A stretch of 64,000 nucleotides of DNA from Vicinamibacterales bacterium (GTDB lineage: Bacteria > Acidobacteriota > Vicinamibacteria > Vicinamibacterales > UBA2999): NCBI GenBank assembly GCA_041659285.1, contig JBAZYO010000002.1:105284-169283 (forward strand), written 5' to 3'. How positions within the stretch are numbered: position 1 is the first letter of the stretch; each line of letters starts with the position of its first letter. This document shows positions 23,665 to 38,803 of the stretch, piece after piece. The notes beneath the pieces were generated by a model. The model searched no databases. It saw nothing but the letters and a program-made list of their open reading frames with translations, and was not told the origin of the DNA. Position numbers and translations under genes: made by a program.

Positions 23665-24670
23665 GCGGTGGCCTCCCTTCGACCAGTGGCGCGTCGAGCC
23701 ACGGCCGCAGGCGGCCGGCCACCCGAAAGACGCCGCAGCCGTCGACCAGTCGCATCGCCGCCCGCGCCTGACGCCGGGCGGTGGCGGGAGCCATCAAGTC
23801 TTGCACCGCCGAAGCGACACGCGCGGCGGTGGTCTGGTCACAGGACGGACCGCCGCCGTCCACGACCGCGCCGTGGCGGGCCATCGCGCGGATCGCCGGC
23901 CGCTGAGCGGCGGTGACGGCGAGGGCCACCGTCGGCACGCCAAGCGCGCACGCCTCGTAGAGCGTGATCCCGCCGGCCACCACGGCCACCGCCGCCCCGG
24001 ACAACTCCGCCACCAGCCCACCGGGCGCCGTGACCCACGATGCCCCGGCCAGCGCCGGCGCCTGACGCCGCCGAGAGAATCCGCGTGCCACGCGGATGTC
24101 GGCGCCGGGTATGCGATCCGCGATCGCATCCACCAGGCACGCGGCCATGGCGTAAACATGCGCGCCGCCACCGAGCGCAATCAACACGCGGCCGGCCCGC
24201 GCCGACCGGCCAGCCTGTCGCGCCTCGTTCACGGCCGGGTCGAGGATGGCGTAACGCGGACCTCGCAGCACGTCGGCGCCACGCGCCGGCCGCGCCGTGA
24301 CGCTCCCGTCGATCGACAGATCGGACTCTGAGTCGCGGCCCTCGAGGTCCCGAATCGTCGCCACGGGCACACGGAGGCGGCGCGCCCGACGGACCCAGCG
24401 CGTTTCTTCGACGGGCGAGGGATCGTCCACGACGATCAGTGACGGTCTCCCTGTCGACACGCCCTCGTCACGCCCACCGCCGAGCACGCGCCAGCCAAGC
24501 GACGCGGCAATAGCGCGGGTCTGGCCCGAGCCCCGCAGCGAGACCACGGCGGGCACTCCCAGAGCGCTGGCCAGCGATCGGCAGCGCACCAGGTGGCCGA
24601 ACCCAAGACGAGGTCCGGCCGCGACGCGAAACACGACCGTGGCCGGCGCGGCGCTGTCGATGACCGTCAT
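23654..24670 (-). CDS. pseG: PseG/SpsG-like UDP-sugar hydrolase (GT28 C-terminal type)
   Basis: The N-terminus VVFRVAAGPRLGFGHLVRCRSLASAL matches the PseG signature (G-GH-xRC). An ATGA overlap links it to the aminotransferase. Confidence 0.7.
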   Translation of the reverse strand: MTVIDSAAPATVVFRVAAGPRLGFGHLVRCRSLASALGVPAVVSLRGSGQTRAIAASLGWRVLGGGRDEGVSTGRPSLIVVDDPSPVEETRWVRRARRLRVPVATIRDLEGRDSESDLSIDGSVTARPARGADVLRGPRYAILDPAVNEARQAGRSARAGRVLIALGGGAHVYAMAACLVDAIADRIPGADIRVARGFSRRRQAPALAGASWVTAPGGLVAELSGAAVAVVAGGITLYEACALGVPTVALAVTAAQRPAIRAMARHGAVVDGGGPSCDQTTAARVASAVQDLMAPATARRQARAAMRLVDGCGVFRVAGRLRPWLDAPLVEGRPPLGA

Positions 24671-25839
24671 GCCCGTCCCAGCATGAGGCGGCGCAGGACC
24701 TCAATCACGCGGCCGGCGTCGGCGTGGCTCATGCCTCCGGACAGCGGCAGCGACAACACACGATCCGAGACCAATTCGGCATGCGGGAACATTCCGCGCG
24801 TCAACCCAAACCGTTGCGCGTAGTAAGGGTGCAGGTGCAGCGCGCGGAAGTGGACACTCGTCGCGATGCCCTCTTTGGCCATGGCCGCCGCGAGCGCGTC
24901 GCGGGTCCAGCCGGACTCGGGCGCGACGAGCACCGTATAGAGATGGCGCGCATGGCGATCGCCCTTGGCCACCGGGGCCGGCCGCGTGAGGGGCAGCCCG
25001 GCGAGCGCCTCGTCGTACATGCGCCAGATGGCCTCGCGTCGCACGAGGTGCGGACCCAGGCGCGCCAGCTGGTGCAGGCCGATCGCCGCCTGCAGGTCCA
25101 TCATGTTGTACTTGTAGCCGGGCATCACCACGTCGTAGTGGGGCGACCCGTTCGGCCCGTAGCGCGCCCACGCATCGCGGCTCATGCCGTGCAGGGCCGC
25201 GACGCGGGCGTACTCCGCGCCCTCGCGGGAGGAGGTCGTCAACATCCCGCCTTCGCCGGTCGTCAGGTTCTTGGTCGCGTAGAAGCTGAAGCACGAAAAA
25301 TCGCCGGTCGTGCCGATCTTGCGGCCTGCCGCGACCGCCTCGACGGCGTGCGCGGCGTCTTCGATCAGGATCAGGCCGGCGCGCGCCGCCACCGCCCGCA
25401 TGCCGGCGACATCCACCGGACGCCCGGCGTAGTGCACGGGAATGATGGCGCGCGACCGCGGCGTCACCGCGGCGGCGGCGGCAGCCGGTGACAGGTTCCA
25501 GGTGACCGGGTCGATGTCGGCAAACACCGGCGTCGCGCCGGTGTGCACCACGACGTTGGCGGTCGCGCAGAAGGTCAACGGCGTGGTGATGACCTCGTCG
25601 CCGGGACCGATTTCCGACGCCAGCAGCGCCAGGTGCAGGGCCGCCGTGCACGAGTTGACGGCGACCGCGTGCTCGACGCCAATGTACTCGGCAAACGCCC
25701 GCTCGAACTCGCGCACGCGGGGCCCCGTCGAGAGCCACCCCGAACGCATGGTGGCCACGACCTCGTCGATCTCCAGATGACCGATCGAGGGCGGGGCGAA
25801 GTTCACGACGCCGTCGGCCACCGTGGTGCTGACGGCCAT
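24667..25839 (-). CDS. pseC: DegT/DnrJ/EryC1/StrS-family sugar aminotransferase (PseC/SpsC-like)
   Basis: The motifs are EIDEVVATMRSGWLSTGPRVREFE and FSFYATKNLTTGEGG (PLP Lys). The ATG at 25839 overlaps the upstream stop (TGATG). An alternative ATG lies at 25869. The 100 aa N-terminal extension in the ORF track is Arg-rich junk. Confidence 0.85.
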   Translation of the reverse strand: MAVSTTVADGVVNFAPPSIGHLEIDEVVATMRSGWLSTGPRVREFERAFAEYIGVEHAVAVNSCTAALHLALLASEIGPGDEVITTPLTFCATANVVVHTGATPVFADIDPVTWNLSPAAAAAAVTPRSRAIIPVHYAGRPVDVAGMRAVAARAGLILIEDAAHAVEAVAAGRKIGTTGDFSCFSFYATKNLTTGEGGMLTTSSREGAEYARVAALHGMSRDAWARYGPNGSPHYDVVMPGYKYNMMDLQAAIGLHQLARLGPHLVRREAIWRMYDEALAGLPLTRPAPVAKGDRHARHLYTVLVAPESGWTRDALAAAMAKEGIATSVHFRALHLHPYYAQRFGLTRGMFPHAELVSDRVLSLPLSGGMSHADAGRVIEVLRRLMLGRA

Positions 25840-26360
25840 CAATTCACCCACATCCGGGTCGGCAGCCATTCCCGGGGCGGCCGCGGCGCCGACCGGGTGC
25901 GGGGGCCATCGCCCAGAAGGGCTGAGGTCAAGTGGATCCGGGTCCGGGCGCCCTCGACGCCTTCCACCTCGAGGAACGGCGCGCGCCACCCGAGCGCGCA
26001 CGGTGGCCCGATCGCCACTTCCTGCTGGGGATTCACGTCGCCCACGAACACACCATCCAGTTCGAGGATCTGAATGCGCTGGTTCCCGTAGTCCGCGACG
26101 GCCAGCCAAAGCGCGTCGGGGCCGGACGCGGGCAGCCACTCACCACTGAATTCAGGCCGCACGAAGGCCAGGTCCAGTGGCGTGTTGAACTGTCCCGGGC
26201 CCCGGCCCCGTTCGCCGAACACGTGCAACAGCCGCTCGAACTCATCCGAGATCGTCACCCGGTGTCGAAGGGGATCGCAGCGATAGGTGAGGCGGCGGCC
26301 GTGTCCGCCCAGGCTCACCTTGGCGACGCCGGTCACGAGATGCTCGATATGAGTCGTCAT
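25839..26360 (-). CDS. small protein with one clear NHL-type repeat
   Basis: The start MTTHIEH (ATG 26360) forms an ATGA overlap with the upstream gene. GERGRGPGQFNTPLDLAF...LAVADYGNQRIQILELDGVFV matches the NHL repeat consensus. Confidence 0.45.
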   Translation of the reverse strand: MTTHIEHLVTGVAKVSLGGHGRRLTYRCDPLRHRVTISDEFERLLHVFGERGRGPGQFNTPLDLAFVRPEFSGEWLPASGPDALWLAVADYGNQRIQILELDGVFVGDVNPQQEVAIGPPCALGWRAPFLEVEGVEGARTRIHLTSALLGDGPRTRSAPRPPREWLPTRMWVN

Positions 26361-27109: not shown

Positions 27110-27363
27110 AACTCAAGCAGTCGCTTTGGATGGGATCGCGCCTCCTTGATATGTCAGTGGCGCCGTTAGGCGGCCAAATTGTCGGGCAGGCGACACCGGG
27201 CCGCCGGACCAACGACACCCGCCGCGTTGGCTGTCACGCGCAAATCGCGAAATAGGCGGTCTTTCTTGCGGCGGGACATCTCATCAGGCGAGATGGCACG
27301 GTCTTGCATCCGCTGGGACGCGGGTCGACCGGAATCGATTCGGAAGGGTATTGGAAAACAGGC

Positions 27364-29634
27364 ATGCAGCCTCTCGACGACGTGGTCAAGGAATTTCTGG
27401 TTGAAAGTCTGGAGAACCTCGACAGGCTTGACCGCTCGCTGGTCGACCTGGAGCAGGACCCGCACGACCGCGAGAATCTGGCGAGCATCTTTCGCACGAT
27501 CCACACCATCAAGGGCACTTGTGGATTCCTCGGGTTCGGCAAGCTCGAGTCGGTGTCGCACGTCGGCGAGAGTCTTCTGAGCCGCATGCGTGACGGCGAA
27601 CTGGTGCTCAATGCCGCGATCACAACGGGCCTGCTGGCCATGGTCGACGCCATTCGACGCATCCTGGCGGTCGTCGAGGCCACCGGAGGTGAACCCAATG
27701 AGGACTACGGCGAACTGATCGCCATGCTGAACCGCTTGAACGCGCCCGGCCAGAAGCCGGCGGCCGCGCCGGCGGCGACCGTCGTGATGGCCGAGGCCGT
27801 CGCGGCCCCCGGCCCCGCGTCGTCCCCGGTTGGGACGGCCACAGACACGACAGCGCCGCGCCCGGAACACGCTCCGGCGCGCGCGACCGAGGAGATCCCT
27901 ATGGAGATCGAGATCGTCGACGCGCGCAGTTCGGACGAGCGGCCCACCGGCGGCGAGCGCCGTCCCGCCATCGTCGACACGTCCCTGCGGGTGGACGTGG
28001 GCCTGCTCGACAAGTTGATGAACCTGGTCGGGGAACTGGTCCTGGCTCGCAACCAGATTCTGCAGTTCACCACCTCGCTGAGCGACTCGGCATTCATCGG
28101 CGCCACGCAGCGGCTGAACCTGGTGGCCTCCGAGCTGCAGGAAGGCGTGATGAAGACACGCATGCAGCCGATCGACAACGTGTGGAGCAAGTTCCCACGC
28201 GTCGTGCGGGATCTCGCAATCGCCTGCGGGAAGCAGGTGCGCATCGAGATGGTGGGCAAGGACACCGAGCTCGACAAGACGATCATCGAGGCGATCAAGG
28301 ATCCCCTCACTCACGTCGTCCGCAATTCGGCTGACCATGGGATCGAGACGCCGAGCGCCCGGATCGCCTGCGGCAAGCCGCCGGAAGGAGTCGTCAGGCT
28401 CAGGGCCTTCCATGAGGGCGGCCAGATCAACATCGAGATTAGCGACGACGGCGCCGGCATCGACCCGGAAAAAGTCCGCCGCAAGGCGGTCGACCGGTCG
28501 ATGGTCTCGGCCGAACAGGCCGCCCGGATGAGCGACCACGAAGCGCTGCGGTTGATCTTCCTGCCCGGGTTCTCAACGGCGGAGAAGATCACCAACGTGT
28601 CCGGCCGCGGCGTCGGCATGGACGTCGTCAAGACCAACATCGAGAAGATCGGGGGCACGGTCGACATCCAGAGCACGCTCGGCCAGGGCACGACGCTCAA
28701 GATCCGCATTCCGCTCACCCTGGCCATCATCCCGGCGCTGATGGTGTCGACCGGCGGCGAAGTGTTCGCCATTCCGCAGGTGAGCCTGCTCGAGCTGGTC
28801 CGGCTCGAAGGCGAGCACGCCCGGGCCGGCATCGAGCGCATCGGCGCCGCGACGTTCTATCGACTCCGCGGCAACCTGCTGCCGCTGGTCCAACTGCATA
28901 GCGAACTCAACCTGGCGTCGCAGGGCGATCCCGGCATTGTCAACATCGTCGTGCTGAAGGCGGACGACCGCCAGTTCGGCCTGGTCGTCGACAGCGTAAA
29001 CGACACCGAGGAAATCGTGGTCAAGCCGCTCGGACGGCAGCTCAAGAGCGTCCAGGTGTTTGCCGGCGCCACGATCATGGGCGACGGCCACGTCGCCCTC
29101 ATCCTCGACGCCACCCGGCTGGCGCAACAGGCCCACGTGCTGAGCGCGGATCGCGACCGGAAGCCGAGCGACCGGCAGGGTGGCCCGCTCGCGCACGAGA
29201 CCGCCGACGCGCAGACGTGGATGTTGTTCCAGGTCAACGGCACCGAGCGCATGGCGATGCCGCTCCACCTGGTGGCCCGCCTCGAGGAATTCGCGACCGC
29301 CGACATCGAGCGTTCGGGCGGACAGGAGGTCGTGCAGTACCGCGGCGAGATTCTGCCGCTGGTGAGCCTCACCCGTTTCTTTGGTGGCACCGCCAACAGC
29401 GAGTCCGACCCCCGCCAGGTGATCGTCTTCTCCGACCATGGCCGGAGCGTTGGCCTCGTGGTCGACCGGATTCTCGACATCGTCACCGAGACCATTACTC
29501 CGACGCGGTCCCAGGCCCGATCCGGCATTCTCGGGGCGGCCGTCATCCAGCAACGGGTCACCGACCTGCTCGACGTCGCCGCCATCGTCCGGCATGCGCT
29601 CCCCGAGTCCGTGTCCGAGCCGGTGGCCGCGTAG
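27364..29634 (+). CDS. cheA: chemotaxis histidine kinase CheA
   Basis: The HPt domain (FRTIHTIKGT), the dimerisation and HATPase domains (HVVRNSADHGIE, GRGVGMDVV) and a C-terminal CheW-like domain are all present. Confidence 0.9.
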   Translation: MQPLDDVVKEFLVESLENLDRLDRSLVDLEQDPHDRENLASIFRTIHTIKGTCGFLGFGKLESVSHVGESLLSRMRDGELVLNAAITTGLLAMVDAIRRILAVVEATGGEPNEDYGELIAMLNRLNAPGQKPAAAPAATVVMAEAVAAPGPASSPVGTATDTTAPRPEHAPARATEEIPMEIEIVDARSSDERPTGGERRPAIVDTSLRVDVGLLDKLMNLVGELVLARNQILQFTTSLSDSAFIGATQRLNLVASELQEGVMKTRMQPIDNVWSKFPRVVRDLAIACGKQVRIEMVGKDTELDKTIIEAIKDPLTHVVRNSADHGIETPSARIACGKPPEGVVRLRAFHEGGQINIEISDDGAGIDPEKVRRKAVDRSMVSAEQAARMSDHEALRLIFLPGFSTAEKITNVSGRGVGMDVVKTNIEKIGGTVDIQSTLGQGTTLKIRIPLTLAIIPALMVSTGGEVFAIPQVSLLELVRLEGEHARAGIERIGAATFYRLRGNLLPLVQLHSELNLASQGDPGIVNIVVLKADDRQFGLVVDSVNDTEEIVVKPLGRQLKSVQVFAGATIMGDGHVALILDATRLAQQAHVLSADRDRKPSDRQGGPLAHETADAQTWMLFQVNGTERMAMPLHLVARLEEFATADIERSGGQEVVQYRGEILPLVSLTRFFGGTANSESDPRQVIVFSDHGRSVGLVVDRILDIVTETITPTRSQARSGILGAAVIQQRVTDLLDVAAIVRHALPESVSEPVAA

Positions 29635-29651: not shown

Positions 29652-30161
29652 ATGAGCACACTCACAGCCAACGCTGCATCCTCTCTCGCTGGCGCCTCGG
29701 CGCCGACCGGCACCGCGCGACAGTTCTGCACCTTCGTGCTCGACGATTTGTACTTCGGCGTCGAGGTGCTCAAGGTCCAGGAAGTGATCCGCTATCAGGA
29801 CATGACTCGCGTGCCGCTGGCGCCCGGGGTGGTCCAGGGCTTGATCAACCTGCGCGGGCAAATCGTGACCGCGATCGATCTGCGGCGCCGCCTCGAGCTG
29901 CCCGAACGTAGCGACGACGCGCGGCCCATGAACGTGGTGGTCCGCACCTCTGACGGCGTCGTCAGTTTGCTGGTCGACGAGATCGGCGACGTCGTCGAGG
30001 TCGACGATGCCAGCTTCGAGCGTCCACCGGACACGATTAGCGGCGCGGCGCGCGCGCTGGTAACCGGCGTCTACAAGCTGAAGCATCGCCTGCTGCTCGC
30101 CCTCGACGTCGAGCAGACCACCGCGCTCGACCTCGAGTCGGCCGCCGAGCGGAGGATCTGA
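29652..30161 (+). CDS. cheW: chemotaxis coupling protein CheW
   Basis: The CheW domain reads QFCTFVLDDLYFGVEVLKVQEVIRYQDMTRVPLAPGVVQGLINLRGQIVTAIDLRRRL. Confidence 0.9.
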   Translation: MSTLTANAASSLAGASAPTGTARQFCTFVLDDLYFGVEVLKVQEVIRYQDMTRVPLAPGVVQGLINLRGQIVTAIDLRRRLELPERSDDARPMNVVVRTSDGVVSLLVDEIGDVVEVDDASFERPPDTISGAARALVTGVYKLKHRLLLALDVEQTTALDLESAAERRI

Positions 30162-30165
30162 CACC

Positions 30166-30624
30166 ATGCTGCACGCACTGTCGACGTTAGTCGTGATGAT
30201 CGTCTTCGCGGGCGTGATGGCCCGCAAGCGGCCCGCCATTCACCTGCCGCTGATGGTCATGGCATTCGTGATCGACCTGAGCCTGGTGCTCTATATCGAA
30301 GTCACCCGCCACGCGGTCGAGCGTGTTGTCGGTCCGGCTGGGCCGCTGATCTGGTTTCATGCGTCGATCTCGACGCTCGTGCTCCTGGCCTACCTGGGCC
30401 AAATTACGCTCGGCCGCCGGATGCTGGCCGGCCGCGCGACCTCCCGCCGGGCGCACATCGCGCTCGGCCTCACGTTCTGCGTGCTGCGCGGGACCAATTA
30501 CGTCACGGCGTTCATGGTGTCGAGCGCCGCCCCGGCCGCCGTGCTGCAACAGGCAGCGGATTCGCATCCCGCGGACACCGATCTTGCGACCACGACACTC
30601 ACCCCCCTTCCCGAGAGAGAGTAG
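30166..30624 (+). CDS. four-TM His-containing membrane protein, DUF420-like
   Basis: There are four predicted hydrophobic helices, with His residues at helix-proximal positions (AIHLP, TRHAV, WFHAS, RRAHIA). The spacing reminds me of DUF420/CtaM-type proteins. Confidence 0.5.
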
Positions 30625-30629
30625 ATCTG

Positions 30630-32735
30630 ATGCGAACCGCCACAACCACCCCTCTGGCCACCACCACGCTGTTCGAACGTCTGGGCGGCGTACCGGCGAT
30701 CAAGGCCGCCGTCGACGCCTTCTACGAGCGCGTGCTGGCCGACACCGACCTGAAGCCGTTCTTCACCGGCGTCAACATGCGCTGGCTCAAGGGGCGCCAG
30801 AACGCCTTCTTCATCCAGGCGCTCGGCGGGCCACAGGTCTACAAAGGCAAGGACATGGCGGCCGCGCACGCGAAGCTGGCGATCACGCCGGAGCACTTCG
30901 GCCAGGTCGCGGGGCACCTGGTGGCGGCCCTGACGGCGGTCGGCGTGCCGAAGGCCCTGGTCGACGAAGTGGTGGCGGCGGTGGCGCCGCTGGCGGCGCA
31001 AATTGTCAATTCGCCGTCGCAGCCAGTGGGCGGCGCGGCGTCATCGGCCGGCGCGGGTGCGCGCAGGCCCCAACTGGCGCTTGCGCGCCCCGCACAGAAA
31101 GAGCGATTCGGTATGGCTAACGGACACACGAAGGGCGCCAACGCCGTGGCTTCGCGCGACGAGGCGGGGGCGGGCATCACGGAATTGATGGAATCGACCG
31201 AGGGACTGCGCGCGAGCCTGGATGCGCTCCGCGCCAATGTCATGATCGCGAACAGCGATCTCGAGATCGTTTACGTCAACGAACGGAGCGTCGAAACGCT
31301 GAAGGGCATCGCCGGCGACATCAAGTCGTCGTTCGGCCTCTCCCTCAACGACATCGTCGGCGGCTCGATTCACCGCTTCCACAAGGATCCCCGCCGCATC
31401 GAGGCCATCCTGCGAAACCCCGCCTCCCTGCCTCATGAGGCCCAGTTCACCTTCGGCGGCATCACGCTGAAGGCGTCGGTCAACGCCGCGCACGGCCCGC
31501 ACGGCGACGTGATCGGCTATGTCGTCAACTGGGACGACGTCAGCGAGCGCATGCGGCTTGACGCCGAGATGGGTCGTGTGAGTTCGATGATGGAGAACAT
31601 GCCGATCAACGTCATGTTCGCCGATCGCGATCTGAAGATTCAGTACCTGAACCCGGCGTCGACCCGGACCCTCAAGACGCTCGAGCAGTATCTGCCGGTC
31701 CGCGTCGACCAGCTGATCGGCCAGGTCATCGACGTCTTCCACAAGAACCCGGCCCATCAGCGCAGCCTGCTCGGCGACCCGAAGAACCTGCCGCGGCAGG
31801 CCCACATTCAGGTCGGGCCGGAAACGCTCGATCTGCTGGTCAGCCCGATCTACGACAACAACAAGACCTACGTGGGCGCGATGGTCACCTGGTCGGTGGT
31901 GACCGAGAAGCTCGCCACCGAGCGCAAGGCCAAGGAACTGCAGAACGAGATCGCGCAGACGGCCCAGACGCTGGCCTCGTCGTCGGAAGAGCTGACGGCG
32001 CTCAGCCAGCAGATGGGCAGCGGCGCCACCGAAACGGCCGCGCAAGCCAATATCGTCTCGGCCGCGTCGGAGGAGGTCAGCAGGAACGTGCAGACCGTTG
32101 CCACCGGCACGGAGGAGATGAGCGCCAGCATTCGCGAAATCGCCAAGAACGCCAACGAGGCCGCCAAAGTCGCGACCAATGCGGTGAAAGTGGCCGAGAC
32201 GACCAACGCCACGATCAACCTGCTCGGCGAGAGCAGCGCCGAGATCGGCAAGGTCATCAAGGTCATCACGTCGATCGCCCAGCAGACCAACCTGCTGGCC
32301 CTCAACGCCACCATCGAGGCCGCCCGGGCCGGCGAGGCCGGCAAGGGCTTCGCCGTCGTCGCCAACGAGGTCAAGGAGTTGGCCAAGGAAACCGCGAAGG
32401 CCACCGAGGACATCGGCCAGAAGATCGAGGCGATTCAGCTCAACACCAAGGGCGCGGTCGCGGCCATCGCGCAAATCGGCGAGGTGATCAACCAGATCAA
32501 CGACATCTCGAACACGATTGCCAGCGCCGTGGAAGAACAGACGGCGACCACCAACGAGATCACGCGCAACGTGGCTGAAGCCGCCAAGGGCACCGCCGAA
32601 ATCGCGCAGAACATCACCGCCGTCGCCCAGGCCGCGAAGAGCACGAGCGACGGCGCCCAGGAGACGCAGAAGGCCTCGAACCAGCTCTCGGAGCTGGCCG
32701 CCGGTCTCCAGGATCTGGTCAACCGGACCAAATAG
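30630..32735 (+). CDS. soluble methyl-accepting chemotaxis protein with N-terminal group-I truncated haemoglobin and two PAS domains
   Basis: The trHb motifs are [15 protein letters not shown] (B10 Tyr), FFIQALGGP and [15 protein letters not shown] (F8 His). The two PAS-like units carry IHRFHKDP and VFHKNP. The MCP hairpin tip reads [38 protein letters not shown] see no TM helix. Confidence 0.85.
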
Positions 32736-32795
32736 TCATTGCCCGTCGCGGCCGGCGCCCGAGCCGGCCGCGATGGCTTCGTTTTTGGAGACTCC

Positions 32796-33182
32796 ATGAA
32801 GGCTCTCGTTGTCGACGACTCTCGTGCAATTCGCGTGATTCTGGGCCAGATGCTGTCGGACCTCGGCTACGAGGTTGCCGAAGCACGGCACGGGCGCGAG
32901 GCTCTCATTCATCTTCAGGCCCACACCGATACCGCACTCGCGCTGATCGACTGGAACATGCCCGAGATGAACGGCCTGGAACTCGTGCAGGCCGTACACG
33001 CCGACCCACAGCTGGCCGACATCCGCCTGATGATGGTCACCACCGAAACCGAGATGGCGCAGATGGCCCGCGCCATCGAAGCCGGCGCCCACGAGTACGT
33101 CATGAAGCCGTTCACCAAGTCCGTGATCGAGGGCAAGCTGCAGCTGCTCGGCCTGCCAGGCGCGCAAGGGGCCGCGGCGTGA
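32796..33182 (+). CDS. cheY: chemotaxis response regulator CheY
   Basis: A single REC domain (KALVVDDS...LIDWNMPEMNG...KPF). GGAG lies upstream of the ATG at 32796. Confidence 0.9.
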   Translation: MKALVVDDSRAIRVILGQMLSDLGYEVAEARHGREALIHLQAHTDTALALIDWNMPEMNGLELVQAVHADPQLADIRLMMVTTETEMAQMARAIEAGAHEYVMKPFTKSVIEGKLQLLGLPGAQGAAA

Positions 33183-34306
33183 GTCGGATCCGTGTACTGA
33201 TTGTCGATGACGCGGTCGTCATCCGCCGCCTGGTCGGCGACGTCCTCAGCGCCGACCCGGAGATCGAGGTCGTGGGCACGGCCGCCAACGGCCGGATCGG
33301 CCTGCAGAAGATCACGCAGTGCAACCCCGACGTCGTCACGATGGACGTCGAGATGCCCGACATGAACGGCATCGAGACCCTCAAGGAAATCCGCAAGACG
33401 TGGCTGAAGCTCCCGGTCATCATGTTCAGCACGCTCACGGAGCGGGGAGCCGCGGCGACGCTGGACGCGCTCCAGGCGGGCGCCTCCGACTACGTGACCA
33501 AGCCCGCCAACGTCGGCAGTGTCACGGCCGGCCTCGAGGCCGTCCGCCGGGATCTCATCCCCAAGATCAAGGCGCTCGCCGGACGAACCGCGGTGCCCGC
33601 AACCGTGGCACCGGCCGCGCGGCAAATCGCGACGCTGGCGACCGCTTGCTCGCCCGCCAGCCTGACGGGCCAGATCAACATCATTGCCATTGGCGTGTCG
33701 ACCGGTGGCCCCAACGCGCTCGCGGAGCTCCTGCCGGCGCTGCCGGCCACGCTGCCGGTGCCGATTGTCATCGTGCAACACATGCCACCGATGTTCACCC
33801 GCCTGCTCGCCGAACGCCTGGACGCACAGTCGGCCATCAAGGTGGCCGAGGGGCGCGCCGGCATGACCCTCGAACCGGGCCATGCCTACATCGCGCCGGG
33901 CGACTTCCATATGACGCTCCAGAGGCGCGGCACGGCCGTGGAAGTGGCCGTCAACCAAGAGCCTCCCGAAAACTCCTGCCGGCCGGCCGTTGATGTGCTG
34001 TTCCGGTCCGTCGTCGCACAGTTCGGGAGCGGCACCTTGGGCGTCATCCTCACCGGGATGGGGCAGGACGGCCTGCGTGGCTGCGAGTTGATTCGCGAGA
34101 CCGGCGGCCAGGTGGTCGTCCAGGATGAAGCGTCCAGCGTCGTCTGGGGCATGCCAGGCTTCGTGGCGCGCGCCGGGCTGGCCCACCGCGTGCTGCCGTT
34201 GAACACGATTGCGGGCGAGCTTGTCCGCAGAACCGCCTCCGCTAGTGCCCGGCCCGCCGTTCCGGTGAGCGCGTTTGGCGGCATGGCTGTTGCGAGGACC
34301 ACATGA
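33179..34306 (+). CDS. cheB: protein-glutamate methylesterase/glutaminase CheB (REC plus CheB_methylest)
   Basis: The REC domain (RVLIVDDAVV...MDVEMPDMNG) is followed by the methylesterase motifs IGVSTGGP, IVQHMP and GMGQDG. A GTGA overlap links it to cheY. Confidence 0.9.
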   Translation: MSRIRVLIVDDAVVIRRLVGDVLSADPEIEVVGTAANGRIGLQKITQCNPDVVTMDVEMPDMNGIETLKEIRKTWLKLPVIMFSTLTERGAAATLDALQAGASDYVTKPANVGSVTAGLEAVRRDLIPKIKALAGRTAVPATVAPAARQIATLATACSPASLTGQINIIAIGVSTGGPNALAELLPALPATLPVPIVIVQHMPPMFTRLLAERLDAQSAIKVAEGRAGMTLEPGHAYIAPGDFHMTLQRRGTAVEVAVNQEPPENSCRPAVDVLFRSVVAQFGSGTLGVILTGMGQDGLRGCELIRETGGQVVVQDEASSVVWGMPGFVARAGLAHRVLPLNTIAGELVRRTASASARPAVPVSAFGGMAVARTT

Positions 34307-35157
34307 GCATTTCGGCACCAGACTTCGACTTCGTCCGCACGCTCGTCTGCGACCAGGCGGGCATCGTGCTCGAGAACGGGAAGGAATACCTCGTCGAGTC
34401 GCGCCTCGGGCCTCTCGCCAAGCGGTCCGGCTTCGACTCACTCGAGTCGCTGGTCGTGGCCCTCCGCCGCACCGATGCCACGTTGCGCCGGACCGTCGTC
34501 GAAGCGATGACCACCAACGAGACGACGTTCTTCCGCGACATCGAACCGTTCGAAGCGCTGCGCAAGCACGTGGTCCCGGAGTTGCTGGCCGCGCGAAGCG
34601 CCTCGAGAGAGTTGAACATCTGGTACGGCGCGTCGTCCACCGGCCAGGAACCGTACTCGCTCGTCATGATGTTGCTCGAGCACTTTCCCCAGCTCGCAAC
34701 GTGGAACGTCACGCACTTTGCCACCGACATCAACCTCGAGGTGCTCGAACGGGCCCGGCAGGGGAAGTACAACCAGATCGAGATGAACCGGGGCCTGCCC
34801 GTGACCTACCTGGTCAAGTACTTCCAGAAGTGCGGGCTCGAGTGGCAGCTCAAGCCGGCGGTGCGCGACAAAGTGCGGTTCGAGCAAATGAACCTGGTGA
34901 AGGCGTGGCCAACGCTGCCGGTCTTCGACATCGTCATGCTGCGCAACGTGATGATCTATTTCGATGTCGAAGCGAAGAAGCAGATTCTGGGTAAGATCCG
35001 CCGCCAGCTCAAGCCCGATGGCTACCTGTTTCTGGGCGGCGCGGAAACCACCATGGGACTGACAGAAGCGTTCCAGCGCGTGCAGCTCGACCGGGCCGGA
35101 TGCTACCGGACCAGTGAAGCCGCGCGGGACCTGTCGATGACGCGAGGAGCGGCGTGA
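34303..35157 (+). CDS. cheR: chemotaxis protein methyltransferase CheR
   Basis: The motifs are TNETTFFRD, IWYGASSTGQEPYSL and MLRNVMIYFD. An ATGA overlap links it to cheB. Confidence 0.9.
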   Translation: MSISAPDFDFVRTLVCDQAGIVLENGKEYLVESRLGPLAKRSGFDSLESLVVALRRTDATLRRTVVEAMTTNETTFFRDIEPFEALRKHVVPELLAARSASRELNIWYGASSTGQEPYSLVMMLLEHFPQLATWNVTHFATDINLEVLERARQGKYNQIEMNRGLPVTYLVKYFQKCGLEWQLKPAVRDKVRFEQMNLVKAWPTLPVFDIVMLRNVMIYFDVEAKKQILGKIRRQLKPDGYLFLGGAETTMGLTEAFQRVQLDRAGCYRTSEAARDLSMTRGAA

Positions 35158-35621
35158 TGCAGATTGACGCACAAGAAATCGCGGGCCTGATTGACGACAT
35201 CTGGATGGCCACGCTGGGCCTCCCGACCCGGCCCGCCGCGCCGGATGCCGACGGCCCGTCTGCGGCCCACCCCACACTCGACGGCATCATCAACATCGCC
35301 GGCGACTGGCAGGGCACGGTGGCGGTGCAGGTTCCCAGGGCGCTCGCCGCGGTGATCGCCGCGCGGATGTTCCGCCTGGGTGACCAGCAACCGACGATCG
35401 AGGACATGCAAGACGCCCTCGGCGAAATCACCAACATGACCGGCGGCAACATCAAGGCACTGCTCCCGGGCCAGTGCGTGCTGTCACTCCCGGCCGTCAT
35501 CGAGGGACGGGCCTACACCATTCGCGTACCCAGTTCTCACGTGGTCACCAAGGTCGCCTTCGAGTGCGCTGGCTTCCCCGCCCTGGTCAGCCTGATGACG
35601 GCCGGCACGTCTCAAGGTTGA
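35157..35621 (+). CDS. cheX: CheX-like chemotaxis phosphatase
   Basis: DALGEITNMTGGNIKALL and SLPAVIEG fit the CheX family. GAGGAG lies 7 nt upstream of the ATG at 35157, and a GTG at 35154 is also possible. Confidence 0.65.
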   Translation: MQIDAQEIAGLIDDIWMATLGLPTRPAAPDADGPSAAHPTLDGIINIAGDWQGTVAVQVPRALAAVIAARMFRLGDQQPTIEDMQDALGEITNMTGGNIKALLPGQCVLSLPAVIEGRAYTIRVPSSHVVTKVAFECAGFPALVSLMTAGTSQG

Positions 35622-35624: not shown

Positions 35625-35942
35625 ATGGAGACACCAATGGTCGAGCCGCTGACGGTTTTTGAATCACTCGGTCCGCTGAGCCTCTACCGCACGCCCGCGG
35701 CAGCCGCCGGCGCCTCGGCGCGCATCGCCGCGGCCCAACACGAGCTGCAGCAGCGCTTCGCGCAACAGCCGTCGGATCTCGATCGCGCGCGGTACGCACT
35801 CGAGGTCGCCTCCACCCTTCTACTCACGCTGCGAAAGCGGGCGTGCTCCTGCGAGCTGTCGCATCGCGACCTGGCCTGCGAGAACGTCGACGTCCATCAG
35901 GTTCTCGCCGACTGGATCGACTTCACCAGGACGCGGCTGTGA
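35625..35942 (+). CDS. hypothetical small protein
   Basis: A 105 aa ORF that starts 3 nt after the cheX stop. It has no recognisable motif and a weak RBS. Confidence 0.3.
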   Translation: METPMVEPLTVFESLGPLSLYRTPAAAAGASARIAAAQHELQQRFAQQPSDLDRARYALEVASTLLLTLRKRACSCELSHRDLACENVDVHQVLADWIDFTRTRL

Positions 35943-35989: not shown

Positions 35990-37540
35990 GTGTCGCTCGG
36001 CGCCACCGCCAGACGATCGTTTGAACTGGGACGCCTTGGCGTCGATGTCCTGCGCGCCCAACGGCAGGACGATGGGCCCGGCCGCGACGCCGCCCGCCGA
36101 ATGGTCGCGCTCCGGATGGGCCGCATGCGGGGCCTGCCCCAGAAGATCGGCCAGATCCTCAGCCTCGGCGAGCTCGACACCGGCACGTCCCTCTTCTCGG
36201 AACTGACCGATGCCGCCGAGCCCGCGCCGGCAGCGGAGAGCTTCGCTTGGATCGCGCGCGAGCTCGGCGCCCCCATCGAACGCGTCTTCCGGCATCTGGA
36301 CCAACGCGGAGCGGCGGCATCGCTCGGGCAAGTGCATCGGGGTGAGCTGCACGACGCGCGGGCCGTCGCCGTCAAGGTGCAGTTCCCCGGCGTTCGCGAA
36401 TCCCTCGACACCGATCTGTCGGCCCTGGGCTGGCTGGCCGCGCCGCTCTCGGCCAGGCGCTCGGGCTTCGACCTCGAGGAGTACCGGGCGGAGATGCGCC
36501 GCAGTTTGCTGCGAGAGCTCGACTACGATCTCGAGGCGGCCACGCTGCGCCGCTTTGCCGCGAGAGCGGACCAGGTGCCGGGCCTCGTCACGCCCATCCC
36601 GATTGACCAGTTCTGCACGCCGCGCCTGATTACCATGTCCTGGGTTCCTGGCGACCGCCTGCAGGCCACGACAAACTGGCCCGATACCGCGCGGCATGAG
36701 GCCGCACTCGTGCTCCTCCGCCTGTTCCTCCGCGGCAGCTTCGTCTGGCGGGAGGTACACGCCGACCCGCATGCCGGCAACATCCGCTTCGCGCGTCAGC
36801 ACGACGGCGTGCGCGTGGGGGTCATCGACTTCGGCTGCGTCAAGACCCTGAGCGCCGCCGAAAGCGACGCCCTCCGGCGGCTCGCCCAGGACGGCCCGGA
36901 CATGACGGGCAACGAACTGTTCGACACCTACGTTGAGCTGGGGTTCGACCCGCGCCTGCTCGCGCCGATGGCCGGCCGCCTGCACGCCGTCACGGCGGTG
37001 CTGTTCGAACCGTTTCATGCCCGCGGGCCATTCGACTCCCGGCACTGGGACGTCTCGGCCCGGCTCGCCGAGGCCCTCGGCGACGACCGGTGGAATTTCC
37101 GGTTCGCGGGACCAGCGTCGCTCCTCTTCTTGATTCGTGCCTTTCAAGGCCTCGTGCAGTATCTCCGCGCGTTTGAAGCCACGATTGACTGGCGGCGCGA
37201 ACTGCTCGCGATTCCACGCCACCTGGATAGCGGCCACCCACAGCCGCGCGCCGATCGTGCGGCCGCGCGCGCTTCAGCAGGAGACTCGATGGAAATGCTC
37301 GCATCCAACCTGCGACTGCAGGTCGAACGCAACGGTGAGACCGTTGTCCGGCTGGCGTTCCCGGCCAGCGCCGCCGCGCATCTGCCGGACCTGGTACCTG
37401 TGGACCTCGGCGAACGGCTGCACGCTCGCGGCATTTCTCTGGCGCAGCTGGCCGAGTCGACGGTGGCCGCCGGATACCCGCCCGGGGATCTCTTTCGACT
37501 GGACGACGGCGCCAGCAAGGTGCGGGTATGGCTCGACTGA
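35990..37540 (+). CDS. ABC1/UbiB-family atypical kinase with extra C-terminal domain
   Basis: It carries GLPQKIGQILS, AASLGQVHRGEL, AVKVQFPGV and HADPHAGN. About 100 aa of unknown C-terminal sequence follows. Confidence 0.8.
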   Translation: MSLGATARRSFELGRLGVDVLRAQRQDDGPGRDAARRMVALRMGRMRGLPQKIGQILSLGELDTGTSLFSELTDAAEPAPAAESFAWIARELGAPIERVFRHLDQRGAAASLGQVHRGELHDARAVAVKVQFPGVRESLDTDLSALGWLAAPLSARRSGFDLEEYRAEMRRSLLRELDYDLEAATLRRFAARADQVPGLVTPIPIDQFCTPRLITMSWVPGDRLQATTNWPDTARHEAALVLLRLFLRGSFVWREVHADPHAGNIRFARQHDGVRVGVIDFGCVKTLSAAESDALRRLAQDGPDMTGNELFDTYVELGFDPRLLAPMAGRLHAVTAVLFEPFHARGPFDSRHWDVSARLAEALGDDRWNFRFAGPASLLFLIRAFQGLVQYLRAFEATIDWRRELLAIPRHLDSGHPQPRADRAAARASAGDSMEMLASNLRLQVERNGETVVRLAFPASAAAHLPDLVPVDLGERLHARGISLAQLAESTVAAGYPPGDLFRLDDGASKVRVWLD

Positions 37541-37559
37541 CAAGGCCCGGCGCCCGGTG

Positions 37560-37949
37560 ATGCGGGGCCTGCTCGCGGCGACCGGCACCGCATCGGCGTG
37601 CCTGGGTGCCCTGGGAATCTTTGTCCCGTTGCTCCCAACCACGCCGTTTCTCCTGTTGAGCGCGTACTGCTTCAGCAAGAGCTCGCCGACGCTGCATGGT
37701 TGGCTGGTGACCAACCGCCATCTCGGCCCTTATCTCGCGCGCTACCAACCGGGTCGGCGGCTGTCCCCGCGCGACCTCGCGCTGGCGTTAGCGGTGCTCT
37801 GGGTATCGATCGCCGCCTCCATCGTGCTCGCGATGCCCCATGCGGCGGGCCGGGCCGCACTAATCGGCGTGGCGACGGCGGTCAGCATCTACCTCGTCAG
37901 ACGGGGTTCGGCAGGCGACTCGTCAAGCCGCGACGCCGTGCGCCCGTGA
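37560..37949 (+). CDS. DUF454 (YbaN-like) inner-membrane protein
   Basis: GIFVPLLPTTPFLLLSAYCFSKSSPTLHGWL is the YbaN/DUF454 signature. Confidence 0.7.
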   Translation: MRGLLAATGTASACLGALGIFVPLLPTTPFLLLSAYCFSKSSPTLHGWLVTNRHLGPYLARYQPGRRLSPRDLALALAVLWVSIAASIVLAMPHAAGRAALIGVATAVSIYLVRRGSAGDSSSRDAVRP

Positions 37950-38786
37950 GACCTCGCACAACGCCGCGTCCGTGAGCAGGCACACGCGCCCGAAGGTCAC
38001 GAAGTCGAGCCCGAGCCGACGATAGCTCAGGGGGTCGACCGCTACGTTGAGCCCTTCCGCGCCAGAGCCGGCCTCGATCGTCTTCGCCACCACATTGGCG
38101 ACGCAGACAGCGTCGAGCGTGGCGGTGGCATTGACGAACGGGGGCGAGTGATGCCGCCGAACGGCGTCGGTGACTTCCGGTGGGAACCGCCACGCGTCAG
38201 CCATCGCGGCGCCGACCGCGGCGTGATCGGTGCCGAGCAGGTCGCGTTCCGCCTCCACGAAGGTCAGGCCGCGCGTGCGCGCATGCGTGGCCAGGTCGTG
38301 CACGCCGGTATTCAGGCACCGCGAGATGAGCAGTTTGCCGACGTCGTGCAACAGCGCCGCGGTCTCGGCCATCGGCGGAATCGACGCGCGCGGAGCGGCC
38401 GCGGCCAATGCGCGAACCGCGAGCTTTGACGCGGCACCATGGACCCAGAGGTCGCGTTCGTTGAGGTGGTAGACCGGCGTCGTCACGCGAAGTTTGGCGA
38501 GGTAGCCCTCGAGCACCAGGTCCAGCAACGCGACCGCGCCCATGCGGAGCACGGCCTCGCGCACCGTGGGCGCGCCCGCAGGCGCCAGACGAACCGAGGA
38601 CGCGTGACGCAAGACGGAAGCGGTCACCACCGGATCCAGCTCGATGAGCTCGGCGACCTGGGCCAGCGCCACGTCGTTGCCGCGCACCATGTCGATCAGA
38701 CGCTGCGCCGTGATCGGCAGCGGTTCCAGGTGCGCGAGCCCCTTCACGATCGCCGCCGGCAACGCCGTCATTGTCAGTCCGGGCAT
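37923..38786 (-). CDS. HDOD domain protein
   Basis: The HDOD motifs are LPITAQRLIDMVRGNDVALAQVAELIELDPVVTASVLR and LLHDVGKLL...GTDHAAVGAAM. I chose the ATG at 38786, which lies 5 nt after GAGGGA. Confidence 0.8.
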   Translation of the reverse strand: MPGLTMTALPAAIVKGLAHLEPLPITAQRLIDMVRGNDVALAQVAELIELDPVVTASVLRHASSVRLAPAGAPTVREAVLRMGAVALLDLVLEGYLAKLRVTTPVYHLNERDLWVHGAASKLAVRALAAAAPRASIPPMAETAALLHDVGKLLISRCLNTGVHDLATHARTRGLTFVEAERDLLGTDHAAVGAAMADAWRFPPEVTDAVRRHHSPPFVNATATLDAVCVANVVAKTIEAGSGAEGLNVAVDPLSYRRLGLDFVTFGRVCLLTDAALCEVSRAHGVAA

Positions 38787-38803
38787 TGTTCCCTCTATAA
38801 AAC

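Follow-up and report, generated by a model that had tools for sequence, protein, structure and literature searches.

The gene at 30630 to 32735 on the forward strand of the window (the whole stretch of 64,000 nucleotides of Vicinamibacterales DNA that was analysed) encodes a soluble chemoreceptor of 701 residues, in which a group-I truncated haemoglobin (trHb) is followed by a disordered tether, two PAS domains of the predicted Aer2 haem type and a kinase-control hairpin. We read this protein, with a probability of roughly 55%, as a cytoplasmic haem-based taxis receptor for a gas, most likely O2, that has an Aer2-type core and carries its HbN-like trHb as an accessory and not as the transmitter. 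The haem His and Trp of the PAS domains, the continuous helix from PAS2 into the MCP hairpin and the Che operon near flagellar genes are directly visible in the sequence or the model. The open reading frame was found exactly where the first-pass annotation had placed it, with every motif quoted there, and the domain order given there, trHb (group I)-linker-PAS-PAS-MCP, proved correct by Pfam and by structure comparison. In a database search, the protein was identical to a methyl-accepting chemotaxis protein recorded at NCBI under 'MAG: Vicinamibacterales bacterium' (P0001). The gene is laid out as follows:

30630..32735, + strand: soluble chemoreceptor trHb-linker-PAS1-PAS2-MCP, 701 aa (ORF list, Pfam)
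30666..31019, + strand: group-I (HbN-like) truncated haemoglobin, residues 13-130 (HbN 1idr alignment, Foldseek)
31020..31193, + strand: disordered Ala/Gly-rich tether, residues 131-188 (AlphaFold pLDDT, composition)
31194..31565, + strand: PAS1, a distinct subtype of predicted Aer2-type haem PAS, residues 189-312 (NCBIfam Aer2 model, column mapping)
31566..31925, + strand: PAS2, predicted Aer2-type haem PAS, residues 313-432 (Aer2 PAS alignments, Foldseek)
31926..32735, + strand: kinase-control (MCP) hairpin, residues 433-701 (Pfam MCPsignal, motif scan)

A profile search and a structure prediction had both been proposed in the first-pass annotation. In the former, the Bac_globin, PAS and MCPsignal profiles all matched: Bac_globin at residues 13-126 (E 1.6e-22; 80 bits compared with a cutoff of 21), PAS_4, PAS_8 and PAS_10 across residues 197-420, and MCPsignal (PF00015) at residues 506-671 (E 3.5e-33). 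These domain matches are well above chance level. No transmembrane segment was found in the receptor, the top 19-residue Kyte-Doolittle mean (1.64) lying within the globin G-helix, and the protein is soluble, as had been claimed.

The structure prediction gave an N-terminal domain with the 2-on-2 helical fold of a truncated globin (pLDDT 70-83). When this domain was superposed on Mycobacterium tuberculosis HbN (GlbN; 1idr) by Foldseek, the TM score was 0.87 and the rmsd 1.2 Å over 115 columns. Domain-level matches were used because the whole AlphaFold model is multi-domain with a pTM of 0.26, which makes its global TM scores meaningless. At the sequence level, residues 13-130 aligned gaplessly to HbN residues 14-131 (E 6e-31; ~47% identity). 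The key residues in this alignment are Tyr32 (B10), Phe45 (CD1), Leu53 (E7), Gln57 (E11), Phe61 (E15), His80 (F8; nt 30867-30869) and Val93 (G8); those at B10, E11, E7, E15, G8 and F8 are identical in HbN. The quoted globin motifs were located as LFERLGG at 14-20, FYERV with Tyr32 as B10, FFIQALGGP at 60-68 and AAAHAK with His80 as F8. Across homologous globin domains, the B10 Tyr, the CD1 Phe and the F8 His were each retained in 90 of 90, the E11 Gln in 83 of 90, and the Gly-Gly hinges G19-G20 and G66-G67 in 89-90 of 90. By fold, hinge and pocket residues, the N-terminal domain is a group-I truncated haemoglobin (trHbN). It differs from HbN, a free-standing protein of ~136 aa, in being fused to a receptor and in having a different, Thr-rich pre-A segment. 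The charged pre-A tail of HbN is required for rapid NO dioxygenation.

HemAT and the S-family resemble the window receptor in being soluble aerotaxis receptors whose MCP signalling part carries a haem globin fused at its N-terminal side. The globin of characterised HemAT-type chemoreceptors is, however, the 3/3 sensor globin and not the 2/2 fold, as the first-pass annotation had pointed out (PMC7475203, PMC13401364). In HemAT, this protoglobin-like domain (PF11563) is joined directly to the signalling helices (PMC7475203), whereas the window receptor has a 2/2 group-I trHb (PF01152), a disordered tether, and predicted haem PAS domains in between. Neither the PF11563 nor the Globin profile matched in the receptor; Bac_globin (PF01152) and 2/2 structures matched instead. 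The receptor has no 3/3 sensor-globin input domain and is therefore not a globin-coupled sensor of the S-family. To our knowledge, each of the aerotaxis receptors studied so far uses one type of cofactor: Aer has FAD-PAS, Aer2 has haem-PAS and HemAT has a 3/3 globin. In the family described here, a 2/2 haemoglobin shares one receptor with at least two PAS domains predicted to bind haem.

The first-pass annotation had described two PAS-like units. Two PAS domains are indeed present, but their Aer2 haem type, apparent from NCBIfam and from the conserved His and Trp, had been missed. The NCBIfam Aer2 model (NF041847) matched residues 191-441, that is, the PAS region alone, with an E of 1e-72; on this equivalog the receptor scored 245.5 bits compared with a cutoff of 1200. 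The PAS motifs RFHKDP and VFHKNP were located at residues 249 and 369, respectively, and their histidines, His251 and His371, aligned with the His of Aer2 FHKNP. PAS2 has the E-eta His371 (nt 31740-31742), the H-beta Leu402 and the I-beta Trp421 (nt 31890-31892). It aligned to the PAS of PaAer2 (3vol/4hi4) and PAS2 of VcAer2 (6ceq) with an E of ~1e-16, the identity to solved Aer2 PAS domains being 34-37% and the Foldseek TM 0.85 for 6ceq and 0.79 for 4hi4; the Thr is kept, but the motif reads V-V-T, not D-x-T. PAS1 adopts a PAS fold in the AlphaFold model (pLDDT ~70) and has the E-eta His251 (nt 31380-31382), the I-beta Trp301 and an extra His248; the H-beta position, Leu in Aer2, is Ala282, and the motif reads D-V-S. 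As it lacks the H-beta Leu and has the additional His248, PAS1 may bind haem differently.

Among 361 homologous PAS domains, the E-eta His was retained in 360 and the I-beta Trp in 359. Judged by the ligand His and by the Trp that bonds O2, the two PAS domains are both predicted to bind haem b in the Aer2 manner, and with these residues kept in nearly every homologous domain (~360 of 361), the receptor probably carries three haems. A FAD-binding PAS of the Aer type was considered and rejected, as both the match and the conserved His and Trp point to the haem PAS of Aer2.

In the AlphaFold model, a continuous helix (residues 426-566) leads from the last strand of PAS2 into the MCP region. The complete MCP signalling hairpin reported earlier was upheld by the PF00015 match and by the conserved tip, EAARAGE at 563-569; the region aligned to Tsr and TM1143, and a motif scan predicted methylation-type motifs at ~457, 492 and 632. 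In the PDB alignment the hairpin has one heptad fewer per arm than Tsr and is hence 34H-like. The C-terminal pentapeptide is absent from it. No HAMP domain was matched in the receptor at E up to 0.01, and the idea that a HAMP had been overlooked after PAS2 was rejected for this protein on this ground and because the modelled helix is continuous. A HAMP-like inserted segment is present in the homologs P0092, P0115 and P0216.

The Aer2 receptors, namely PaAer2, VcAer2 (two PAS domains) and VvAer2 (three PAS domains), are likewise soluble MCPs in which the C-terminal-most PAS adjoins the output. In their conserved core, a PAS is followed by a di-HAMP and a kinase module of 36 heptads that has a pentapeptide at its C-terminus, and they belong to F7 systems, which do not steer flagella (PMC10107281). 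In contrast, the window receptor lacks HAMP and the pentapeptide, is 34H-like, has an N-terminal trHb and is encoded in an operon with flagellar genes nearby. Having no di-HAMP and scoring far under the full-length cutoff, it falls outside the definition of an Aer2 receptor.

The mechanism of Aer2, and the roles of its last and upstream PAS domains, have been described (PMC10107281). By analogy with PaAer2, VcAer2 and VvAer2, the binding of O2 to the PAS2 haem would move the H-beta Leu and rotate the I-beta Trp. The change in PAS2 would pass, with no HAMP relay, into the kinase-control helix and alter the activity of CheA; PAS1 would tune PAS2, and CheR and CheB would provide adaptation. Because Aer2 signals through a di-HAMP that is absent here, the sign and the mechanics of the PAS-to-kinase coupling may differ.

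According to the first-pass annotation, no trHb-MCP fusion is known to have been characterised. We also found no experimental study of a trHb-MCP in the literature searched, which lay mostly outside subscription journals, so that this absence is not proof. The architecture itself is neither rare nor unnoticed: roughly three in four of the 120 best-matching database clusters showed trHb-PAS-MCP, and an in silico report appeared in 2018 (PMC6194562). In that work, Sharma, Parales & Singer described the combination Bac_globin+PAS+MCPsignal for Cc_4972 of Corallococcus coralloides, and their survey of 8,075 complete genomes counted no more than 7 proteins of this kind (PMC6194562). A 2026 review still cites the Cc_4972 architecture as a prediction only (PMC13401364). 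Metagenomes commonly contain the trHb-PAS-PAS-MCP architecture, and it is widespread among soil bacteria; the lineages of soil and sediment in which the family abounds (Acidobacteriota and Planctomycetota among them) are hard to study. When genome contigs were scanned with the full-length alignment, through patterns taken from the MCP tip, the matches listed were mostly generic MCPs and did not include the genome of the window; of those listed, only L001 and L036 covered the globin, and the scan therefore says little about phyletic distribution.

Like Cc_4972, a proposed aerotaxis sensor, the window receptor combines the three Pfam domains, is cytoplasmic and is encoded in a che cluster with an ABC1 kinase (PMC6194562), a likeness drawn at the level of domains. 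Neither the Aer2 haem type of the PAS domains nor the HbN-like character of the globin was recognised in the 2018 paper, which also makes no mention of the split/fused dynamics described below (PMC6194562). The hosts differ as well, Corallococcus having no flagella whereas the host of the window has flagellar genes. The window receptor is a further member of an already noticed, uncharacterised receptor class and not a new kind of system.

The low-complexity linker reported after the globin agrees with the composition (of 56 residues, 14 are Ala and 9 are Gly), and residues 130-192 were also predicted to be disordered (AlphaFold pLDDT 27-42). This tether of ~60 residues differs among homologs in both length and sequence. 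The globin is N-terminal in most relatives; in 6 of the 120 best matches it is C-terminal on a short Gly/Ser tether, in some relatives it is double or quadruple, and in ~28 of the 120 best matches it is absent. It forms a separate upstream ORF in L097, L117, L105 and L002, and a separate downstream ORF in L138. An exhaustive HMMER search, used in place of a globin-only word-index search that had returned short proteins only (many probably fragments on short contigs), found truncated globins also on MCPs that contain GAF and on a CheA-like protein. The trHb is an added module, separable from the receptor. The disordered tether, together with a globin that is variably N- or C-terminal, multiplied, absent or encoded by its own gene, argues for an accessory and not a primary allosteric input. 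To call the receptor trHb-coupled, as had been done, overstates the role of the globin, since in the AlphaFold model it is PAS2 that is wired into the signalling helix.

It is possible, although we consider it unlikely, that the trHb is itself a signalling input, which is how the first-pass annotation read it, i.e., a second sensor of very high affinity for O2, NO or CO that on ligand binding would either dock at PAS1 or the MCP helix or be released from it, making the receptor a two-range or two-gas device. The invariance of the haem pocket across 90 fused globin domains and the recurrence, across phyla, of linkage to Aer2-type PAS receptors fit such a true second sensor equally well as they fit an accessory. 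HemAT provides a precedent for globins driving MCPs (PMC13401364), and upstream domains modulate signalling in VcAer2 and VvAer2 (PMC10107281). Moreover, as the AlphaFold model is a monomer with a pTM of 0.26, it is compatible with ligand-dependent docking of the globin. Against a direct input stand the length (~60 residues), disorder and variability of the tether and the lack of a globin in many close homologs; a globin found at either end, in 1-4 copies or on a separate polypeptide is hard to square with a fixed allosteric path.

With the trHb as an accessory, its most likely job would be to adjust the gas signal locally, at the array of receptors, which is the least certain part of our reading. 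Its chemistry would be of the HbN type, i.e., very tight O2 binding and/or NO dioxygenation, by which it may protect the ferrous haems of the PAS domains against jamming by NO or may widen the range of the sensor; it is unlikely to act by pushing on the signalling helix. Counting against this, no reductase is encoded near the receptor, and a NO dioxygenase would need one to recycle the ferric haem.

The tether also contains a trace of an earlier gene boundary:

31096..31115, + strand: relic internal ribosome-binding site and start codon (sequence, Met162 conservation, SD enrichment)

The site reads AGAAAGAG, followed after 9 nt by ATG (Met162, nt 31113-31115). Met162 is nearly the sole conserved residue of the linker, being invariant in alignment A1 and present in at least 90% in A2. 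A linker Met was found in 28 of 37 distinct fusions, and at 22 of these 28 it was accompanied by a Shine-Dalgarno (SD) duplex of -5 kcal/mol or stronger, compared with 12% of the remaining internal Met codons (p 3e-10); a within-linker control gave a p of 2e-10. The unfused, two-gene versions read TAAGGAG...ATG. At the globin/receptor junction, the sequence is TAAGGAGAATTGAACATG in L097 and AAAGGAGAATCAGTCATG in L091, and a single nucleotide separates the fused from the split state. The trHb would thus ancestrally have been a separate gene, co-transcribed immediately upstream of the receptor, and fusion would have come about through the loss of a TAA stop that overlapped the receptor's SD site.

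Most fused genes retain the SD-ATG in the linker, where it may be functional in sister lineages. In the window it has decayed to AAAGAG, a weak SD of -2.1 kcal/mol compared with -7.7 to -8.8 in sister lineages; for this reason, an internal translation start was rejected for the window gene and the site is treated as a relic. E. coli cheA, which gives two products, CheA-L and CheA-S, from in-frame starts, may serve as a precedent only. Both are chemotaxis genes with an in-frame internal SD-ATG and a potential shorter product minus the N-terminal module, but the candidate site of the receptor is a relic of gene fusion, and a decayed one in the window.

A more specific proposal, which we hold to be rather doubtful, is that the trHb is no sensor but an enzymatic filter tethered to the array (a NO dioxygenase or an ultra-tight O2 binder), toggled between split and fused states by one nucleotide and giving two receptor isoforms in the manner of CheA-L and CheA-S. 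With such a filter, the haem sensors of the Aer2 type could still be read in places where both O2 and NO are present. The dose of globin per array would be set genetically, with the retained internal SD-ATG yielding a long isoform that has the globin and a short one that lacks it. The physiological roles of truncated haemoglobins are still debated. If the globin is a tethered module that processes NO or O2, the receptor would clearly exemplify a chemoreceptor that brings its own signal-conditioning enzyme; if these readings hold, truncated haemoglobins would gain a defined cellular address, and the split/fused series would constitute natural experiments on the importance of covalent linkage. 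As it stands, the result is a well-supported annotation of a receptor class.

The receptor gene lies within a CheA-CheW-x-MCP-CheY-CheB-CheR-CheX operon beside flagellar genes in this Acidobacteriota (Vicinamibacterales) MAG, and the gene order around it was found to be conserved when 40 related loci were compared. Its neighbours are:

27304..29634, + strand: CheA histidine kinase with Hpt, dimerisation, HATPase and CheW-like domains (Pfam; upstream of the receptor in 26 of 40 related loci)
29652..30161, + strand: CheW coupling protein (Pfam CheW, E 4.5e-33; in 32 of 40 related loci)
30166..30624, + strand: DUF420-like four-helix membrane protein, 152 aa, divergent, CtaM/YozB-like (homolog Pfam matches, AlphaFold)
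32739..33182, + strand: CheY response regulator (Pfam Response_reg)
33179..34306, + strand: CheB methylesterase (Pfam)
34303..35157, + strand: CheR methyltransferase (Pfam)
35154..35621, + strand: CheX phosphatase (Pfam)
35990..37540, + strand: ABC1/UbiB-type atypical kinase (Pfam ABC1, E 2.5e-48)

The DUF420-like protein of the window gave no Pfam match itself, but 18 of 25 homologs matched PF04238 (DUF420; best E 2.5e-6). Its model has four helices (pLDDT 85), and His26, His65 and His97 are invariant.

This neighbourhood raises the alternative, improbable in our view, of a redox or energy-taxis receptor, in which the haems would report the redox state of the cell and not gas binding, electrons would be exchanged via the DUF420-like protein and an ABC1/UbiB-linked quinone pool, and the kinase would read the ferric or ferrous state. 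It draws on the conserved placement of this His-rich, four-helix membrane protein directly between cheW and the receptor, on the recurrence of the ABC1 kinase as a neighbour (found also in L161), with the same pairing in Corallococcus (PMC6194562), and on the ready oxidation of VvAer2 PAS1 in vitro (PMC10107281). Yet the DUF420-like gene was detected at that place in only 15 of the 40 related loci, and the ABC1 gene adjoined the receptor in only 7. When the fold of the DUF420-like protein was compared with the PDB, nothing significant emerged (best E 0.65), a cytochrome included; the matches to cytochrome b561 and a designed di-haem bundle were weak and were discounted as evidence. The characterised Aer2 PAS domains, moreover, signal by O2 binding and not by a redox change (PMC10107281).

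We consider it very improbable that the fusion arose as an artefact, through a stop lost by sequencing or assembly error, or that it is an accident in decay, with a globin that is non-functional baggage: although the window comes from a metagenome-assembled genome and the fused and split states are one nucleotide apart, the same in-frame fusion recurs across several phyla, in independent assemblies and cluster representatives that number in the dozens, the key globin residues are invariant, and GC3 is uniformly high (0.89) over the receptor ORF. Downstream of the receptor, the SD context suggests that the true start of cheY is probably the ATG at 32796.

The receptor gene lies at 30630-32735, as the first-pass annotation had it; it is on the + strand and encodes 701 residues, and its third-position GC (0.89) is as high as that of the genuine genes around it. 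The product was identical to the database entry 'MAG: methyl-accepting chemotaxis protein [Vicinamibacterales bacterium]'; hence, the window comes from an uncultured acidobacterium. In Pfam, residues 13-126 matched Bac_globin with 80 bits (cutoff 21; E 1.6e-22), 197-420 matched PAS families and 506-671 matched MCPsignal (E 3.5e-33), and every motif quoted in that annotation was found in its place. The claimed lack of a membrane segment was also borne out: the most hydrophobic 19-residue stretch of the receptor had a Kyte-Doolittle mean of only 1.64 and fell within the globin. The original observation was thus right, and a sharper annotation is possible. The receptor is a soluble, Aer2-like chemoreceptor that lacks a HAMP domain and carries an HbN-type globin on a tether; its gene belongs to a flagellar che operon. 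The protein is predicted, and probably so, to carry as many as three b-type haems, since it combines this globin with two PAS domains that carry the haem His and Trp of Aer2.

When residues 13-130 were aligned with Mycobacterium tuberculosis HbN (PDB 1idr), no gap was required (E 6e-31). With HbN numbering offset by one, we take Tyr32 to be B10, Phe45 CD1, Leu53 E7, Gln57 E11, Phe61 E15, His80 F8 and Val93 G8. In 90 globin domains drawn from the 120 best homologs, the B10 Tyr, CD1 Phe, F8 His and first Gly-Gly motif were each present in 90/90, and Gln E11 was kept in 83. The globin part of the AlphaFold model (pLDDT 70-83) superposed on 1idr with a TM score of 0.87 (rmsd 1.2 A, 47% identity). 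The proposed group-I (N-type) assignment therefore stands, and the domain is a bona fide truncated haemoglobin.

The two 'PAS-like units' of the first-pass annotation are indeed PAS domains; what it chiefly missed was their Aer2-type haem identity. The NCBIfam model of the Vibrio Aer2 aerotaxis transducer covered residues 191-441 (E 1e-72). PAS2 could be aligned with solved PAS-haem domains, those of Pseudomonas aeruginosa Aer2 (3vol, 4hi4) and PAS2 of V. cholerae Aer2 (6ceq); a 12-residue block and a later W-x-x-x-T-E are among the aligned stretches, and its model superposed with TM 0.85 on 6ceq and 0.79 on 4hi4. Two residues define Aer2 PAS domains: the E-eta His, which is the haem b ligand, and the I-beta Trp, which forms a hydrogen bond to bound O2; the H-beta Leu and a DxT motif at the C-terminal end contribute to signalling (PMC10107281). 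The corresponding residues are

E-eta His: His371 in PAS2, His251 in PAS1
I-beta Trp: Trp421 in PAS2, Trp301 in PAS1
H-beta position: Leu402 in PAS2, Ala282 in PAS1
C-terminal motif: V-V-T (Thr kept) in PAS2, D-V-S in PAS1
Extra His: His248, in PAS1 only

Among the PAS domains of the 120 best homologs, the E-eta His was found in 360/361 and the I-beta Trp in 359/361. By these residues, both domains of the receptor are predicted to be Aer2-type haem domains. PAS1 is a distinct subtype that forms the first PAS domain in many homologs, and its haem or ligand binding may differ, e.g. through a six-coordinate haem. The slot between the globin and the last PAS domain is evolutionarily plastic.

Some further features of this region may be noted. 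At 31371-31382, PAS1 reads His248-Arg-Phe-His251, with the second His three residues ahead of the haem-ligand His; Ala282 (31473-31475) replaces the pocket Leu, and IE stands where the PAS2/Aer2 motif has QR. In some close relatives (P0044, P0047, P0050, P0051; L087, L099, L103, L119, L120, L129), an ordinary PAS_3-type domain without the Aer2 haem motif (…AVIEFxLDGTI…GRHHSMF…) replaces PAS1 or lies in the linker. A GAF-like segment occurs between the globin and the last PAS in L114, L118 and L152.

The AlphaFold model of the receptor (monomer, 32-sequence alignment, pTM 0.26, with the individual domains confident) showed the globin, a disordered tether (residues 130-192, pLDDT 27-42), PAS1 joined by a short helix to PAS2, and a single unbroken helix from the end of the last PAS2 strand (426) to the hairpin tip (566). 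In this model, output would be mechanically coupled to PAS2 and not to the globin. The hairpin is 34H-like, with one heptad fewer per arm than E. coli Tsr; it has three methylation-type adaptation motifs, and the receptor has no C-terminal pentapeptide. Pfam detected no HAMP domain in the receptor, and some homologs have a HAMP-like insert at the PAS2/hairpin junction. From work on Aer2, the signal would be O2 binding at the haem of the last PAS domain, modulated by the upstream PAS domains (PMC10107281). Aer2 keeps its kinase restrained through a di-HAMP unit in its conserved core (PMC10107281); as the receptor lacks this unit, its PAS-to-kinase coupling logic may differ from that of Aer2.

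The architecture was then counted among the 120 best clusters at 90% identity, as follows.

trHb-PAS2-MCP: 35 clusters
trHb-PAS3-MCP: 33 clusters
trHb-PAS4-MCP: 11 clusters
trHb-PAS1-MCP: 4 clusters
trHb-PAS5-MCP or trHb-PAS6-MCP: 2 clusters
trHb-trHb-PAS4-MCP: 1 cluster
PAS3-MCP-trHb, globin C-terminal: 6 clusters
Without globin: 28 clusters

Source names included Vicinamibacterales, Bryobacteraceae and a Mycobacteriales MAG; the SAR324 and Nitrospinaceae entries were relatives without globin. A pattern scan of JGI metagenomes gave at least 506 confirmed relatives. An exhaustive HMMER search with the globin alone (1.84 billion cluster representatives) gave 4,660 relatives; the best 150 (145 sequences) included 11 trHb-PAS-MCP proteins, 9 more trHb-PAS fragments, others with GAF or HAMP domains, and one (P0281) with four globins in front of PAS-PAS-MCP. 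Tandem arrays of 2-12 truncated-haemoglobin units were seen in 87 of these 145 (P0174-P0234 and others), P0174 having 12 units in 1,882 residues. In the CheA-like protein P0254 (578 residues), a truncated haemoglobin lies between the HATPase_c and CheW-like domains, which suggests that chemosensory arrays acquired the globin in more than one way.

A Bac_globin + PAS + MCPsignal receptor, Cc_4972 of Corallococcus coralloides, was put forward in 2018, purely in silico, as a special aerotaxis sensor; its gene cluster also contains ABC1 and ABM genes, and seven such proteins were counted in 8,075 complete genomes (PMC6194562). An ABC1 kinase gene is near the receptor gene in the window as well. 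An aerotaxis review of July 2026 still cites Cc_4972 as a prediction only (PMC13401364), and a 2020 globin review gives bacterial chimeric truncated globins for the O and P groups only, not N (PMC7475203). The first-pass annotation knew of no characterised trHb-MCP fusion. The architecture is common and was already noticed computationally, while experimental work on any trHb-MCP was not found in the literature searched. The receptor is thus a further member of a widespread class. New here is the recognition that the PAS domains are of Aer2 type, that the globin is a separable module and that fusion arose through one nucleotide, with the Shine-Dalgarno (SD) site and ATG retained.

No alignment of the homologous linkers was possible apart from a single Met (Met162 in the window receptor), invariant in one homolog alignment, at least 90% conserved in a second, and usually preceded by Lys-Glu. 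In many lineages, the linker DNA has AAGGAG followed 6-9 nt on by ATG, which reads as an SD site with its start codon. A linker Met was present in 28 of 37 distinct N-terminal fusions. At 22 of these 28, a correctly spaced anti-SD duplex reaches -5 kcal/mol or better; of the 616 other internal Met codons in these genes, only 12% have one (Mann-Whitney p 3e-10). Inside linkers, such a site accompanied 67% of Met codons and 17% of the remaining codons (Fisher p 2e-10). In the unfused locus L097, the globin gene ends ...AAG CAC TAA GGAGAATTGAAC ATG..., the PAS-MCP gene begins at that ATG, and the two share one reading frame. Split genes also occur in L117, L105 and L002, and in L138 the MCP gene is followed by a separate globin gene. 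Comparison of fused L091 (AAA GGA GAA TCA GTC ATG) with split L097 (TAA GGA GAA TTG AAC ATG) indicates that a single base change at the SD-overlapping stop codon would interconvert two genes and one. In sister Vicinamibacterales genes the internal site is still strong (AAGGAG, -7.7 to -8.8 kcal/mol), and in some lineages internal initiation may yield a globin-less isoform. The sequence is AAAGAG in the window and in its nearest relative (-2.1 kcal/mol for Met162), and the site in the window looks like a decaying relic.

HbN binds O2 very tightly and has NO-dioxygenase chemistry, and every residue behind these properties is retained in the receptor globin. For this reason, we rank first, by analogy, a globin that conditions gas locally, by NO removal, O2 buffering or range extension; this is the most likely reading. 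The main rival is that the globin is a true second sensor that docks ligand-dependently. The globin, however, tolerates a long disordered tether, either terminus, 1-4 copies, physical separation and attachment to other array proteins, which argues against a fixed allosteric path and favours a role needing only proximity to the array. Less likely is a redox relay through two neighbouring gene products, a DUF420-like membrane protein and an ABC1 kinase, and an artefactual fusion of globin to receptor is very unlikely. The genes around the receptor gene are, in order,

27304-29634, CheA
29652-30161, CheW
30166-30624, + strand, 152-residue membrane protein, between cheW and the receptor gene
30630-32735, + strand, receptor
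32739-33182, CheY
33179-34306, CheB
34303-35157, CheR
35154-35621, CheX
35625-35942, 105-residue ORF
35990-37540, + strand, ABC1/UbiB-type atypical kinase

This gene order recurs among 40 related metagenome loci whose receptor is fused. Neighbours in the 40 loci were CheW (at least 32), CheA (at least 26), CheY (at least 19), CheB (at least 18), CheR (at least 17), the membrane protein in the equivalent position (at least 15) and ABC1 (at least 7), these being lower bounds as many of the contigs are short. Flagellin, FliD, FlgL, FlgK and FlgI are encoded less than 20 kb away; hence, the operon probably steers flagellar motility.

The 152-residue protein has four helices, with His26, His65 and His97 invariant and His3 at least 90% conserved. 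DUF420 was matched by 18 of its 25 homologs, the window protein itself having no Pfam match; this CtaM/YozB family is related to the halves of haem A synthase (PMC8239418). That the protein is a conserved neighbour is also new from this analysis. As a putative haem-handling membrane protein within a che operon, it may anchor or load the receptor or exchange electrons with it. The ABC1 kinase gene directly adjoins the receptor gene in L161 (8152-9684). In L162, a Vicinamibacterales relative, a glutamyl-tRNA reductase gene (5595-6842; GlutR_N + Shikimate_DH; HemA) lies between the trHb-PAS-MCP and cheY genes. HemA catalyses the first step of haem synthesis, and its presence fits a heavy haem demand of the receptor.

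A nonulosonic-acid sugar locus (17529-26139, - strand) directly precedes the che and flagellar genes, and this suggests flagellin glycosylation:

17529-18668, - strand, PseB-like dehydratase
21897-23012, - strand, NeuB
24667-26139, - strand, probable aminotransferase

Amid the flagellar genes are a hybrid histidine kinase of 1,363 residues (42801-46892, - strand; dCache-HAMP-PAS-PAS-HisKA-HATPase-REC-REC-Hpt) and, next to it, a response-regulator gene (46962-47660). Between the ABC1 kinase and flagellin genes lie a DUF454 membrane protein (37137-37949, + strand) and an HDOD-domain protein (37923-38930, - strand); HDOD genes flank the receptor operon in 4 of the 40 related loci as well.
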